From Podospora anserina (taxonomy: Eukaryota), in the NCBI GenBank assembly GCA_017654855.1, contig CM030336.1:4650001-4714000 (forward strand): a stretch of DNA of 64,000 nt, given 5' to 3'. Positions 42,793-48,868 of the stretch are shown in pieces. The first letter of the stretch is position 1, and the number at the start of each line of letters is the position of its first letter. Under the pieces are notes generated by a model that was given only the letters and a program-made list of their open reading frames with translations, did no database searches and was not told the DNA's origin. Made by a program: the position numbers and the translations under genes.

Positions 42793-45700
42793 ATGCCTCG
42801 CGGAGGGGGAAATCACCTCAGCACTGCCCTCTGGGTAGCTGCAGCGGTCTTTCTTTTTTGCCTCTCGCCTTTCCTCTTTTCCGAAACTGCCCCTCACAGC
42901 AACATCATACAACGCTCAACAACAGATGCCCCTATCGACTCTATCATTGCCCGCCGTGACGCGGCCGCCATCCCCGATTCTCGCCGTAGCCCAGGCCATT
43001 CCAACCCCCTCAAACTACCTCCCCATGAGCCTCTTTTGTTTGAGGAGCCCTCTGTCTCTGAGCCAGAGCCATCATCGAGCAGCAATCTGACACGGCGGTC
43101 GGCAAGCCTGTCCAGACGCGACGGTCCGCTGTACTGTCACGATGGACCTTGCATTGACGGCAGCTGCTGCGGCCCCGACAACATCTGCGGCTTTGGCCCC
43201 GACTTTTGCGGAGAGGGCTGCCGGTTCAACTGCACTGCCACGGCCATGTGCGGAGAACACAGCGAGTTCGGACAGATGCCCTGCGGCATGAAGCTGTGCT
43301 GCTCATCCAGCGGCTGGTGTGGGGTGAGTACCTACCTACCTAACCTACCTTCCCTTGTCCAAGATGCTGATAGCTACATGTACGACTAGTCCACCGAGGT
43401 GTACTGCCACAACGCCGACCCGCTGCGCGGCACTTTGCCCTGCCAGGCTGGCTACGGCTCCTGCTACATTACCGGCCCGCCCTCATGCCCCTACGGCGGC
43501 GGCACCACCAGTGGCCGTCACATCGGCTACTACCAGTCATGGAACGTGCGTAACCGGCTCTGCAACAAGGTCTCTCCCAGGCAGCTCAACACCACTGGCT
43601 ACACCCATTTGTTCTATTCTTTCGCGTCCATTGACCCATCTACCTTCCGCATCGCCCACGCCCACCCGGATGATCCCGCCATGATGCGTGAGTTCACCGG
43701 ACTCGCTAAACCGGGTCTGAAAACCTGGATCGCCATCGGTGGCTTCGACTTCAGCGACAAGGGGACGCCCACTCACCGCACATGGAGCGAGATGGTCGCC
43801 TCCCGTGACCGCCGAGCCGTCTTCATCTCGTCAGTGAAGGACTACATGGATGAGTATGGCTTCACCGGCGTCGACATTGACTGGGAGTACCCTGGTGATC
43901 CGGAGAGAGGTGGGAACAAGCTTGCCGACACGCAGAAGCTCGTCCTGCTGATGAAGGAGATGAGGGCCGCGTACGGCAGCAACTACGGCATCAGCCTGAC
44001 GCTGGCGCCTGACTATTGGTACCTGCGCTGGTTCGACGCCAAGGCGATGGAGCCCTACGTCGACTTTTTTGGCTTCATGGCCTATGACTTGCACGGCCCT
44101 TGGGATGCCGACGTCAAGGCCCTGGGCAGCAAGGTTCGCGGCCAGGCCGACATTCGCGAAATCTCCGAGAATACAAAGCCGCTGTGGTTTGACGGCCTCA
44201 ATCCCGCCAAGCTGAACTTTGGTCTCGCCTTGTACGGACGCGGCTACACCCTGGCTGACCCGACCTGCAACCAGCTCTTGTGTCCCTTCGCTGGCGGAAG
44301 CAACCCGGCCCCTTGCACCAACTTTGAGGGCGTCATGTCGCTCCACGAGATTCAGCAGCTCATCGATCGGAAGGGCCTCACTCCCCAGTACCTTCCCGAC
44401 GCGATGATGAAGCAGATCACATGGGATGACCAGTGGATCGGCTACGACGACGACGAGACCTTTGCCGCCAAGAAGGCCTGGGCAGACTCGAGATGCTTCG
44501 GCGGCACCATGGTCTGGAGCATCGACTTTCAGGTGGCTGGTTCTGGTGATTCAGATGACCAGAAATACGGCGACGTTGTCTACATCGGCCAGGAGGTGTT
44601 CGAGACACCTGCGGCCCAATGCCCAGCCCCGTGTATCATGGTCTTCCCCTCCAGCTCGCTGCAAGAGCCCAAGGTCCTCACAATGCAACCGTACACGGCC
44701 ACGCTTGAGGTTGGCACCACCACAACCACTATCGTCGCTGTCAGCACCCCAAGCACAACCACCGTCTCGGTCGTCAACTTTTTCAACCACTACATTACCA
44801 GCGGACAGCCCGCGGGGGCCGTAGTCACGCTACGACCAAGCATCCAGCCGCCTCCCCTCATGCTTGTGGTGACCGGTCAGGACAGCGAGACAACAACAAG
44901 AACAGTCCTACCCCCGCCCCTTGGTGGTGCCTTTTCCGGCGGCGGTGGTGGTGGTGGTAGTGGTGGCGGTAGCAGCAATCCGACAAGCTCTCCTACCACG
45001 ACCATCAACACCACTTACACTCCCCGGCCCCCCAATGCTGGCGGGCACACAACAACGATTGCCATGCCCACCAGCCCAGTGGAGGATTCTGACGATTCCG
45101 ACGACGACGATAATGACCCCCCTGTGCTCCCAGGCTTTCCAACGGGCACTGTTGACCCCGTCGACGAAGAAGACGACGATGATCCTCCCCCTCCTGGCAA
45201 GACACGCCTCAAGTGCGACCTCTGGTTCTTTAACATCTGCATCAACTGGCCCGAGCTCGGCATCAAGATCGACTGGTGGGATGTTGAGCTGCCCACAGGC
45301 CGCCACGGACCGGGGACCATGCCCCTTGGCTATATCAACCTCCCGGGTGGATGGCACATCGGCTGCGCGAACCCTCCCTGCTCGCTGCCGTGGCCCGAGA
45401 TCGACATCCACCCCGGTGGCGGCTTACTCGCTGTCACCCCCGCCGCACCGACGCCGTGCAAGCCGGTAACCGCGACGCTCACTATCTCGACCACTTCGTA
45501 CGCCACGACAACCACCCAGGGCACCGTCCGGACTATCTCGTCCCGCACCATGTCCAGCGAGTTTCCGATCCTGGGGTGCGCCCTCACCGACCTTACCGTT
45601 AGCGTGTCTAAGACCGCCTGCGCCTCGCCGCAACCTACGCCGAGGTCCATCGGGGAGAGAGATGACACTCTTGATGATGACGACTGTGAAGACGACGACG

Positions 45701-48700
45701 AGTGGGCTGATTTCGCTCTCGTCCTCAACAATCCTTTGAGCAAGATCAGCGGAGCCCTGCGGGCGGAGCTTGAGGATGCTGTGTCTGGCCAAGAGCTGGA
45801 CGACTGGACAGTCATCACGATCGACGACCCGGTCTTCACAGCATTTATCTGGCTGTATGACGCGAGAAAGGCTTATGGTCGAGGACTAACGGGGTCGTAT
45901 GGGGTAAGCTTTTTATATTAACCAGATTACCTAGGTATACTTCCATCTGCAACGCGGCTAACCACTCCACCTTGTTTTATAGATTGGCTCGGTCCATATG
46001 ATAGAACACCCGCCGCGGCGGGAGGACTCGCCCCCGGGATCCCCCTCGTCGTCTTCAAGGATGCGACGACGACACAGTCGATCCTCACCTGGCTCTCGCC
46101 GAGGTGTGCAAAGTCGCAATAGGAACGAGACAGCAGCATTGGCCGTCGGCTATCCGGACCAACCCATCTCCCCCAAACGCAGGATCGTTAAGCGGACGCG
46201 CAGCGAGATGCGCAACTACGCCATGGCCCACCTCAGCATCCCGCCCGAAGTCGAGTTTGCGAGCAACGACGAGTACTTCAAAGAGGGCGACGACCGAGAC
46301 CGATACTACTACCAGCGAGACGCCTCTGAGTGCCAGGACCAGGACGTCTACCTGATCGAGAGCGGCTACCAGACGGACCACCCGCACTTCCTCCCCCTAC
46401 GCCAGAACGGCCACCAGGAGACGCTGCCCCGGCACCTGTCGTCGTGGTGGGACGACAATCTAGTCTGGTACCCCGACCACCCCACCGGGGTGGGCTCCGT
46501 CATCGCAGGCCGCTACACCGGCGTCTGCCCCGAAGGCAAAGTCAGGCTCATCGGTACCGACGTACCTCATAGACGGTGGGATGAGGGCACGGATTCGCCC
46601 GTCTGGGCCTGGATGCTCATCGATGCTCTGACTACGACGCTGGGGCGGGTCAAGTCCAACGGCCGCGGCACCAAGTCGGTTATCAATATGTCGTTCAGCA
46701 TGATCGTGTTTAATGAGCCGATGCGCAATATGTTGAGCACGCTGCTCCAGCAGCTAGACAGCCTCGGCGTAGTTATCGTCGTTGCGTCTGGCAACCACCC
46801 AGATTGGCACAACGCCGATTTAGTGCCGCCGCCCGCTCGCGACGTCTGGCCTCGCGGGGAGGCACAGGTCCCGAACATTATCTTGGTCGGCGCGACCGAT
46901 ATCCACGGCCGCAGGGGTATCTTTTCCCAAGCGTGCGAGGTATACGCGGCGGGCGTGGATGTGGCCGTCTCCCTCCTGGGCGGCGGCGACGACGACTTCG
47001 AGGTGGTCAACGGGACGTCTTTTGCGGCGCCGGTCGTGTCGGGCTTAGTGGCGTACTTGCGCGCCCTCGTCGCCATTAAGGATCCCAGCAGACTCCGTGA
47101 GTTCGACGACCCGGCCTACGTCAAGGAATTTATATGGAGTAACCAGCGGCGTGTCCTGTACGACGACTACACGGAACGCAACCCCGAGCCGGGGCGCTAC
47201 GCTAACAACGTGAAGCGCACTAGGTGGGTGCGTTCAGTGTGGAACGGTCAGTCGGAATCGGACAACCAGTGCTACTTCGGGGACTCGCTTCCAGCCGAAT
47301 GTGATACGTACCCCGAAGACCTTGATGACGGTCCTGACGATAGGTATCATTTCGGGCAGGAGGACGACCAATATGGGGATGATGATGATTGTTCGGGGAG
47401 CGGTTCTGATGGCGGATCTTGGGACGGCTCGGATCCCGGCTCAGACTTGGCCCGTAGGCAGTCGAGGAAGCGACAGGCGGGCGGGCAGTGTCCCGTACCC
47501 GGGGCACCGGGTAACGGGGGTGGTGGCGGTGGCAGTGACGGCGGCGACGTTGGAGGGCAGGACCAGCTCGGCCCATCCAAGACGTTTACTTACCAAATTG
47601 GCACTCCCTCCCCCACCTGCACCACCGGATGCGGCGTTCTTTGCACCGACTTCTGGTGCCGGCCCGATCACACCGGACAGCCGCCGCACTTTACCGAGCC
47701 CACCCGCCTCCCGCCGTCCACCATCACCCCTGCGCCGACAGCCGTCGAGCCGATCCCCTCCAACTGCATCTCCTCCACTACCACAAGGATCTGCTACGGC
47801 GACCGCCAGGGTCAGATCTGCGCGTCAGCGACGGTGTGCGTCGCCACCCCATGCCCGGACGGCTCCGTCTGCAGCATCACCAGCCCTGTTGATGGGAGCA
47901 CCCCCAGTCCCACTACTAATGAGGATCTGCCTCCACTCCCGGCACCAACCTCCCTATCCTGCCCCCCGCCCTGGTTTTCCACCACATCGGCCTCGTGCGG
48001 CGGCAGCGGCGGCAAGTCGGCCTGCGTGACAACTACCGTTTGCGCCGTCACACCGACCTCGACACCGGTCTACGAGCTCACCATCATCCCGTCGTGTGGA
48101 GGCAACTTGCTGTGCGTCTCCAGAACCGCGTGGGTCAGCTGCACGGGCGGCGTCGCGGCGCGCGAGCTGCCCGAGCCGACAACAGTGTCAGCCTTTGGCA
48201 CGATCCCGACCAACCTTGCCCCCCACCAGGACCACCAAGGCAGCGGGGAGGAGAAGCGTGCCGCGGTAGCAGCAGCAGCAGCAGTCAAGTACCCTCGACG
48301 GCCACCCGCGGGCCGTCCCGTCCTCGCACCAGCCGCGCCCGTCGTCAAGGACCTCTCGCCAGCCGCCCCCCCGGCGCCCCCCCAGATCACCGACCACGCC
48401 GTCCTCCAAGCCCGCCAGGCCGGTGGGGAGGTCTGCCACGTCACCGTCTTCTGCAACGTCTGCGAGTCCCCCCCCAGGCCGTCGCCCGCGCCCCCGCCGC
48501 CGCCGCCCGACCCGTGCATCAAGATCAAAATGACCGAGGTCATGACCGGGCTCAACCTCAACGGCCTCCAGTACGAGGCCGAGGTCACCCTCAACGGCAA
48601 GCGCGTCTGCAAGGTCGACTCGCGCTGCAACGAGCTCGCCAGCAGCACGGACGAGTGCCTGGGGGTGAACGGCAAGCGCGAGTGCTCGGACGGGAACCGG

Positions 48701-48868
48701 ATCGACACGTGGAACACCAAGCACTTTGCCATCTACAGCAAACAGAACGACAAGGTGTACGACGTCGATATGAAGGTGCAGGTGTTCGAGGGCGTGTGGG
48801 ACCCGTGCAACGGGGCCGGGTTCATGTGCATCGCGACCGTGTTTAGGGGGCAGACGGGGAAGTGCTGA
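42793..48868 (+). CDS. CBM18-GH18 chitinase (subgroup C-like) fused to an S8 subtilisin-like domain and Cys-rich tail, ~1976 aa
   Basis: Phase-0 introns 43324-43389 and 45904-45982 join three ORFs. GH18 motifs FTGVDIDWEYPG, MAYDLHG and GGTMVWSID. S8 motifs VYLIESG, HPTGVGSVIAG, VINMSF, VVASGN and NGTSFAAPVVSG. Confidence 0.88.

Follow-up and report, generated by a model that had tools for sequence, protein, structure and literature searches.

A Podospora anserina gene joining a chitinase, a pseudo-subtilisin and a cysteine-rich end: a candidate Kex2-cut secretory polyprotein

A stretch of 64,000 nt of Podospora anserina (assembly GCA_017654855.1, contig CM030336.1, positions 4,650,001 to 4,714,000; hereafter the window) carries, at positions 42793-48868 of its forward strand, what is very probably a single fused gene for a protein of 1976 aa (hereafter WIN, to which all residue numbers refer). 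It joins a chitinase-like front half to a subtilisin-like (S8) domain devoid of two of its three catalytic residues and to cysteine-rich modules whose end differs among relatives. With a probability of roughly 0.55, this gene is read here as coding for a secretory wall-hydrolase/effector polyprotein precursor that is cut by Kex2 and has the pseudo-S8 domain as a carrier. In such a precursor, the Golgi Kex2, and not the dead S8 domain, would produce four or five pieces, namely a pro-peptide, the chitinase with its linker, the pseudo-S8 domain, a Cys-rich stalk and a terminal domain. Once cut off, the latter would be a small secreted protein resembling Alt a 1/PevD1, in which one cysteine is left unpaired, the pseudo-S8 domain would serve as a folding or binding scaffold, and the products might act in interactions with other chitin-walled organisms or on the fungus's own wall.

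The preliminary description of this region had proposed that three open frames (42769-43389, 43390-45921 and 45983-48868, all on the forward strand, as are the features given below) are spliced through two canonical phase-0 introns into one protein of about 1976 aa, and both the splice signals and the homologue alignments bear this out. Intron 1 (43324-43389, 66 nt) has GTGAGT, CTGAT and TAG as signals and contains an in-frame stop; intron 2 (45904-45982, 79 nt) begins with GTAAGC and has a CTAAC branch site 20 nt upstream of its 3' TAG. The exons 42793-43323, 43390-45903 and 45983-48868 amount to 5931 nt, translated into 1976 aa with a single terminal stop. Removal of intron 1 yields WCG|STEVYC, matching P0002, a 1938-aa protein of Apiosordaria backusii, and WIN is colinear with P0002 and with P0003 (Triangularia setosa, 1986 aa) from Met1 to the terminal Cys, with the same residues at both exon junctions. 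Besides WIN, six gene models, belonging to five species of ascomycetes, have the fusion of a GH18 chitinase domain with an S8 domain. When longer relatives of exon 3 were sought, five proteins came up, three of them GH18+S8 (P0002, P0003 and P0001, of 1810 aa, also from T. setosa) and two PF12708+S8 (P0004, from Xylaria sp., and P0005). The search with the post-GH18 part of exon 2 returned six proteins, all GH18+S8, and added P0047 (Chaetomium olivicolor), P0020 (Neoarthrinium moseri) and P0048 (Naviculisporaceae sp.). A conserved segment spans the exon 2/3 junction, aligns without a break in 6 of 6 homologues and also aligns to the contiguous N-terminus (residues 69-506) of P0025, from Venustampulla echinocandica (Helotiales). 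Since colinear full-length homologues align across both exon junctions, the fusion is hardly a matter of chance, and these alignments argue strongly for one gene instead of two. Pfam on the exon translations and the motif positions also agree with the domain order proposed earlier, i.e. leader, CBM18, GH18, linkers, S8 domain, Cys-rich modules and C-terminal Cys domain, and the motifs then singled out are in place: DIDWE at aa 339-343, SRRDG at aa 107, KRRIVKR at aa 1080, RKRQAGG at aa 1510, EKRAA at aa 1772, PDPCIKIK at aa 1857 and GKC at the very end.

Kex2 is described as cutting after KR and RR, and also after LxxR with Arg at P1 and an aliphatic residue at P4 (PMC8528282). Dibasic Kex2-like sites had been noticed at the module borders, and they prove to be conserved in relatives. 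The Ser/Pro-rich pro-region (aa 34-109; 42892-43119) ends in the dibasic R108-R109 before Asp110, and all 4 aligned proteins have RR or KR in front of DGPLYC, ahead of the first CBM18. The basic linker (aa 1026-1086; 46013-46195; 16 K+R in 61 aa) ends in K1080-R-R-I-V-K-R1086 before the S8 core; in four of four aligned proteins, (V/I)(K/R)R stands 6-8 residues before NYA(M/L)AHL, near the start of this core, which is about where a normal subtilisin would remove its own pro-domain. Behind the S8 domain, the acidic linker (aa 1441-1512; 47258-47473) ends in L1504-A-R-R1507|Q and R1510-K-R1512|Q, followed by a 4-Cys module. Within the 87 aa upstream of this module, 28 of 33 family proteins have R|Q, vs. 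0.23 expected per such segment; P4 is aliphatic in 22 proteins, and 16 have a dibasic site. Finally, the Pro/Ala-rich linker (aa 1741-1826; 48158-48415) carries E-K-R1774 and L1823-Q-A-R1826|Q1827. LxxR|Q directly before the Cys cluster of the tail is found in WIN, P0001, P0002, P0003, P0007, P0025, P0033, P0018 and P0027; P0023 has IGPR|Q and P0032 is devoid of such a site. From the conservation of Kex2-type sites at each border, we infer that the protein is cut by the fungus's own Kex2.

The S8 domain (aa 1087-1440; 46196-47257) was recognised in exon 3 as Pfam Peptidase_S8 (PF00082; E 2.3e-11, 44 bits vs. a cut-off of 21.8), and in the PDB the closest sequence is that of proteinase K (E 1e-9), aligned over residues 22-254 of a chain of 279 residues. 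In this alignment, E1141 (46358-46360) and G1184 (46487-46489) occupy the positions of what we take to be the catalytic Asp and His of proteinase K, WIN having VYLIESG and DHPTGVGS vs. VYVIDTG and GHGTHCAG. The presumed oxyanion Asn (N1286) and catalytic Ser (S1361; 47018-47020) are kept, GTSFAAP and ASGNH matching the Ser and oxyanion-Asn motifs, respectively. The position of the His is occupied by another residue in all ten covered proteins (WIN and nine homologues: G, S, N, N, F, R, G, M, K and L) and, by eye, in P0047 and P0048 as well. At the Asp position, seven of nine covered proteins (WIN and eight homologues) have Glu, one has Gly and one Asp. The Asn is kept in 16/16 and the Ser in 21/22 homologues. 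Compared with the proteinase K-type subtilisins (MEROPS S8A), the domain thus has the GTSxAAP Ser motif and the oxyanion Asn in common, but it has Glu for Asp, Gly for His and a Kex2 site at the place of pro-domain self-cleavage, and it is embedded in a protein of about 2000 aa. Because the residue at the general-base position is variable across the family, the S8 domain is, judging from these alignments, a pseudo-protease whose classical catalysis has been lost clade-wide. The earlier view of a self-processing 'chitinase plus protease' has therefore to be abandoned: self-processing is unlikely, since the domain is without the catalytic Asp and His.

Concerning the C-terminal ends, the last 140 aa, compared by BLAST among 46 family proteins, form seven groups and 12 singletons; one of the seven groups consists of the truncated stalk only, and two others are, by eye, a single type. 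The search suggested earlier, for homologues in which the GH18-S8 core is combined with other C-termini, has a positive outcome: among the seven GH18 fusions, the tail is of type A in WIN, P0002 and P0003, type C in P0047, type D in P0020 and type F in P0048, the last one resembling the tail of P0019. The P0001 tail begins as type A but no longer follows the family pattern beyond about 25 residues. In P0028 the end is Pfam MU117, and P0004 has yet another, different end. Identities along the proteins form a mosaic: the GH18 domain is 96% identical between WIN and P0002, and the identity of the pseudo-S8 domain is 41% between the same two proteins, 55% between WIN and P0001 and 74% between P0002 and P0003. 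These values point to a strongly constrained front and a fast-evolving back, and recombination is a possible cause of the mosaic. In a tree from 60 columns of the 4-Cys module, tails A, B and C lie within one clade (support 98/99). Repeated tail swapping, although considered, is not confirmed: trees on 225-229 columns, from which 19 labelled proteins were dropped because one of two anchor motifs was absent, need 8 changes for a minimum of 8 or, with three long branches also omitted, 7 for a minimum of 6. In the P0001 model, the counterpart of intron 1 seems to have been read through, as the sequence diverges for about 90 aa after WCG; the model is either a mis-annotation or a decaying paralogue.

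The type A tail of WIN, the predicted released domain (aa 1827-1976, 150 aa; 48416-48868 with the stop codon), has 11 Cys, including the last residue, as have the tails of P0002 and P0003; all the other predicted secreted fragments of WIN have even Cys numbers. The odd count would leave one cysteine free for an inter-chain link and suggests a disulfide between chains, either in a dimer or with a partner. A first model of the tail, from 6 sequences, was poor (pLDDT 63). The AlphaFold2 model from a 12-sequence alignment (pLDDT 82.9, pTM 0.73) is a beta-barrel with eight strands and no long helix. Among 48,161 representative chains compared with VIA-align, first came the Verticillium effector PevD1 (5xmz; Z 6.8, root-mean-square deviation (rmsd) 3.5, 94/122 aligned) and second Alt a 1 (4aud; Z 6.7, rmsd 3.4, 98/123 aligned), at Z values that, like all others obtained for the tail, are below the 8 advised for this tool and may reflect a common arrangement. 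In a second-look search, ranks 1-3 were taken by 5xmz (6.8), 4aud (6.5) and 3v0r (6.1), i.e. all three Alt a 1-family entries listed, and the next row had a Z of 5.1 with partial cover. Over both searches, the unrelated rows after this family had Z values of 5.0-6.0 and less coverage, and the family alignments themselves had an rmsd of 3.5-4.0 over 94-100 residues for 5xmz, 3.4 over 98 for 4aud and 3.3 over 96 for 3v0r. The modelled tail and the Alt a 1 family (AA1; Alternaria Alt a 1, PevD1) have in common a secreted, disulfide-bonded beta-barrel of about 120-150 aa, with about 80% of the target covered, but there is no sequence-level match, and the tail is the end of a giant precursor and not a free gene product. 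Reports of AA1 proteins come from Dothideomycetes and Sordariomycetes alone (PMC6322577). PevD1 is described as an inhibitor of a plant PR5 protein, a function that cannot be transferred to the WIN tail. An Alt a 1-like barrel is, on this model, about an even bet, and nothing firm can be said of its function; the highest-ranking structures, at borderline scores, are secreted effectors and not a known toxin.

Other comparisons of the tail were negative or were set aside. Pfam Hce2 was found neither in the exon translations (E≤0.1) nor in the scanned family proteins (E≤10), and Protein Atlas gave a best tail score of 0.83 and no usable match for aa 561-1015. A phmmer search of the tail against the PDB matched the receptor-binding domain of coronavirus spike over only 36-44 aa (E at least 0.067 for single chains, 2.2e-4 for a tandem construct), which was taken as chance. 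P0010 (120 aa, from a 1771-nt contig) was considered as a free-standing tail gene and discarded: Pro and Ala are absent from it, and among the 54 differences between it and P0002, 20 are consistent with C>T or G>A and 4 with the opposite change, a look of the repeat-induced point mutation (RIP) type; it is probably a mutated fragment.

Regarding the front half, the start codon and hydrophobic leader (aa 1-33; 42793-42891), a signal peptide or signal anchor, align with the N-termini of homologues; the highest hydropathy window of WIN lies at aa 11-29 (KD19 2.13), and aa 10-30 form its sole transmembrane-like stretch. Two CBM18 (hevein-like) units (aa 110-210; 43120-43488) are split by intron 1; in exon 1, Pfam Chitin_bind_1 gave two stretches with E 3.3e-6 and 27.7 bits, just below the cut-off of 27.8. 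The GH18 catalytic domain (aa 221-556; 43519-44526) was recognised in exon 2 as Glyco_hydro_18 (PF00704; E 4.3e-51, 174.9 bits vs. a cut-off of 29.6), and D339, D341 and E343 of DIDWE are kept. No LysM was found by Pfam (E≤0.1) in the three exon translations. With its 1976 aa, its CBM18 units and no LysM at this threshold, WIN has the features of the C-I chitinases, and its front half is best explained as a LysM-less, C-I-like fungal chitinase of subgroup C type, with two CBM18 units and a GH18 domain.

Behind the GH18 domain comes a conserved post-catalytic segment (aa 561-680; 44539-44898) without a Pfam family, which is common to the fusions with PF12708 (GH55-like): by BLAST, aa 572-739 match residues 872-1047 of P0004 (E 4.6e-10) and 733-915 of P0005 (E 3e-11). 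It is followed by a Thr/Gly/Asp/Pro-rich linker (aa 681-775; 44899-45183), whose 95 aa include 17 D+E, 23 S+T, 15 P and 16 G and are 34-62% identical to homologues, and by a Trp/Phe-rich Cys module (aa 776-930; 45184-45648; KCDLWFFNICINW, then PWPEIDI) with 66-90% identity in P0001-P0003. Here aa 755-880 match P0004 (1134-1250, E 7e-5), and aa 755-1377 match P0005 (996-1632, E 1.3e-20). The segment spanning intron 2 (aa 950-1025; 45706-46012) is probably a unit like the subtilisin pro-domain (I9-like), going by its strand-helix pattern as read by eye. Downstream of the S8 domain, the hallmark 4-Cys module (aa 1513-1600) and Cys-rich repeats (aa 1601-1740) occupy 47474-48157 and are 80-86% identical in P0001-P0003, with 18 Cys in aa 1513-1826; C-x3-C-x4-C-x-P of the 4-Cys module was found in 35/46 homologues. 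An all-lengths HMMER search with aa 1513-1976 matched 40 proteins; among the 39 scanned, 15 have an S8 match, each N-terminal to the matched Cys module, and the remaining 24 include many short proteins, possibly from incomplete gene calls. Three blocks (aa 572-739, 755-880 and 1080-1603) are common to WIN and P0004, in which PF12708 occurs twice, a pattern that we take to be that of GH55 glucanases. The part behind the catalytic domain would therefore be a cassette following two kinds of wall hydrolase. P0025 (RefSeq, 911 aa) has the pro-domain-like segment, the pseudo-S8 domain, the Cys modules and a type-A-like end, with neither hydrolase nor signal peptide; either the cassette exists alone outside Sordariomycetes or this model is 5'-cut.

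Several points weigh against a Kex2-cut effector precursor. The homologous fusions are all automatic gene predictions, no sequencing run listed as RNA was found to cover the locus, and in four sequencing runs contigs of unknown type cross both introns unspliced, with no splice joint (45657-46229 through intron 2 in run X1, 43126-43697 through intron 1 in run X2); such contigs are uninformative on splicing, since the removal of intron 1 is needed for any GH18 protein. Chitinase activity is presumed, and Thr336 replaces the first Asp of DxxDxDxE, a position with Thr also in P0001-P0003 and with Gln in P0020, P0047 and P0048. Pfam I9 (PF05922) was detected neither in exons 2 and 3 (E≤0.1) nor in six homologues carrying the pro-domain-like segment (E≤10). 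Cleavage is predicted from sites among which LxxR is a loose motif. No partner, toxin or immunity gene was recognised by Pfam in the 4 + 23 flanking open reading frames, a weak test as gamma-toxins are very divergent. Tail types appear largely to track lineages, so that the trees support variability among lineages but do not bear out frequent exchange. As for the tail, besides its low Z values, with either model Foldseek had no PDB match at E≤0.001, the best rows being beta-barrels (PloI4 cyclase, GFP, lipocalins) with a TM-score of about 0.3, and Pfam AltA1 was found neither in exon 3 (E≤0.1) nor in P0002, P0003, P0010 and P0025 (E≤10).

Carbohydrate-active enzymes usually consist of a catalytic domain, a linker and an all-beta binding module. 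WIN may be laid out in the same way, as an uncleaved, wall-associated chitinase in which the pseudo-S8 domain, the stalk and the barrel are spacer and targeting or binding modules, similar to carbohydrate-binding modules (CBMs) or lectins, acting on its own or a neighbour's wall, and in which the tails are binding specificities and not cargo. This usual layout, the tail modelled as a compact disulfide-rich beta-barrel, the same cassette after two kinds of wall hydrolase, a neighbouring gene for a secreted protein with about eight CBM18 units and tail types that track lineages would all fit. We nevertheless hold this alternative to be rather unlikely: Arg-Gln sites with a Kex2-type P4 or P2 residue lie exactly at the borders (the 28/33 vs. 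0.23 expected given above), a conservation that would be hard to account for if no cut took place, and the best fold matches are free secreted effectors and not CBMs.

A more far-reaching form of the precursor reading may be envisaged, although we regard it as doubtful. The gene would then belong to a family of 'cis' killer or effector-delivery polyproteins, in which a wall hydrolase (GH18 or GH55-like), a dead-subtilisin carrier and an exchangeable effector or toxin domain come from one Kex2-cut precursor. The pro-domain-like piece would hold the chitinase chain on the pseudo-subtilisin chain, and the complex would open the wall of a competitor and bring in the cargo, as a single-gene counterpart of zymocin alpha, beta and gamma. 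In bacterial polymorphic toxins, the N-terminal part is long and conserved, and a conserved motif marks the border to a C-terminal domain that can be interchanged. Compared with them, no adjacent immunity gene was recognised by Pfam in the flanking frames, tail types mostly follow lineages, and any toxicity of WIN is hypothetical. The K2PP effectors similarly have KR/RR and LxxR in disordered stretches before Cys-rich folded units, and their upstream piece could aid folding; theirs is a short N-terminal pro-domain, whereas WIN would have about 1800 aa of enzyme and pseudo-enzyme and several cuts (PMC8528282).

The subgroup C chitinases are described as proteins of 150-250 kDa with CBM18 and LysM, none of which had been biochemically characterised according to a 2015 review, as having an architecture in common with the zymocin alpha subunit, and as being encoded by genes that often adjoin those of secreted proteins made of binding modules only (PMC4392113). 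WIN resembles the C-I members in its large size, its presumed secretion, its CBM18 units at the N-terminus and its GH18 domain, and its divergently transcribed, binding-module-only neighbour recalls the tac6/tal6 pairs (PMC4392113), although with CBM18 and not LysM. A subtilisin-like domain, a Cys-rich cassette and a variable C-terminus are not mentioned in the examined parts of published descriptions, and no described GH18-S8 fusion was found in the literature, supplements aside: subtilisin, peptidase and protease are absent from the main text of a survey of chitinases in 373 genomes (PMC8042737), and the available text of the zymocin-cluster preprint has no mention of subtilisin or protease (10.1101/2024.10.25.620242). 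As this preprint describes them, the zymocin-like clusters of Pezizomycotina hold a LysM-bearing C-II chitinase, a separate gene for a gamma-toxin, an anticodon nuclease, and sometimes an immunity gene; C-I chitinases are without LysM, and toxin genes also occur beside other hydrolases (GH71, xylanase). WIN has in common with the zymocin of Kluyveromyces lactis and these clusters a chitinase precursor for which cutting in the secretory pathway is assumed, a terminal Cys and the idea of a variable 'payload'. It differs from the clusters in having no LysM and no recognised toxin or immunity neighbour, and its variable domain lies in cis behind a dead subtilisin. The zymocin analogy drawn at the outset is weakened accordingly. 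Because WIN is without LysM and no toxin gene was recognised by Pfam in the flanking frames, it does not appear to be a member of the zymocin-type (C-II) system, even if it may work in a related way.

A zymocin-like holotoxin carrier, with alpha- and beta-like chains and a C-terminal Cys bound by a disulfide to a separately encoded small toxin, would account for this terminal Cys, for the odd number of Cys (11) in the terminal fragment of WIN, P0002 and P0003, and for the architecture common to subgroup C and the zymocin alpha subunit (PMC4392113); among 31 chitinases adjoining a gamma-toxin gene, 29 are reported to have a terminal Cys (10.1101/2024.10.25.620242). It is nonetheless improbable, as the published clusters use LysM-bearing C-II chitinases, the preprint text available does not mention an S8 cassette and, as a weaker argument given the divergence of gamma-toxins, the flanking frames hold no recognised toxin- or immunity-like neighbour.

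Two separate genes, with intron 2 kept, a chitinase stop at 45919-45921 and a second protein from the ATG at 45998, are very improbable. The downstream frame does have an in-frame ATG soon after intron 2, and P0007 (932 aa) and P0025 hold the cassette without a hydrolase. However, the exon 3 product alone has no signal peptide in spite of its many Cys modules of the disulfide type, five other species have six fused gene models between them, the conserved segment crosses the junction, and intron 2 has canonical signals (GTAAGC, CTAAC, TAG) in phase 0; P0025 is, by eye, also without a signal peptide, and its model may be 5'-cut. Finally, an active S8 protease that processes its own polyprotein and helps to breach the target wall is scarcely credible, for the fold, Ser1361 and Asn1286 are kept, but the general-base His is absent in 10/10 covered proteins with a varying residue (G, S, N, F, R, M, K, L) in its place, the Asp is replaced in 8/9, and a conserved Kex2 site stands where a subtilisin would cut its own pro-domain.

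Fungal genomes hold many subgroup C chitinases, a part of which has recently been linked to zymocin-like toxins (10.1101/2024.10.25.620242). On the branch of this subgroup without LysM, the gene analysed here points to a second design that seems not to have been described before, with a conserved pseudo-subtilisin cassette, conserved Kex2 sites and lineage-specific ends. If the pieces are released, a single gene would be the source of an enzyme, of a pseudo-enzyme and of a small secreted protein like Alt a 1, such domains would escape effector catalogues restricted to free genes, and the role of a dead protease domain in a secreted fungal protein would have a testable case.

As for the neighbourhood, the divergent gene at 40694-42210, on the minus strand and 582 bp away from ATG to ATG, has three exons and codes for a protein with a signal peptide, about eight CBM18 units and no catalytic domain. 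Only two of the flanking open reading frames have a Pfam family: 38816-39154 (plus strand; Fung_rhodopsin, PF20684, E 6.8e-15) and 60809-61630 (minus strand; adh_short, PF00106, E 2.2e-36). At position 46117, the window has C where four sequencing runs have G; this change (CGC to CGG, Arg1060) is synonymous and is a fixed difference between the strain of the window and the others. The GC content is 0.43 at 12001-16000 and 0.41 at 62001-64000 vs. 0.50-0.63 elsewhere in the window, and these low-GC stretches may be AT-rich repeats or RIP-affected.

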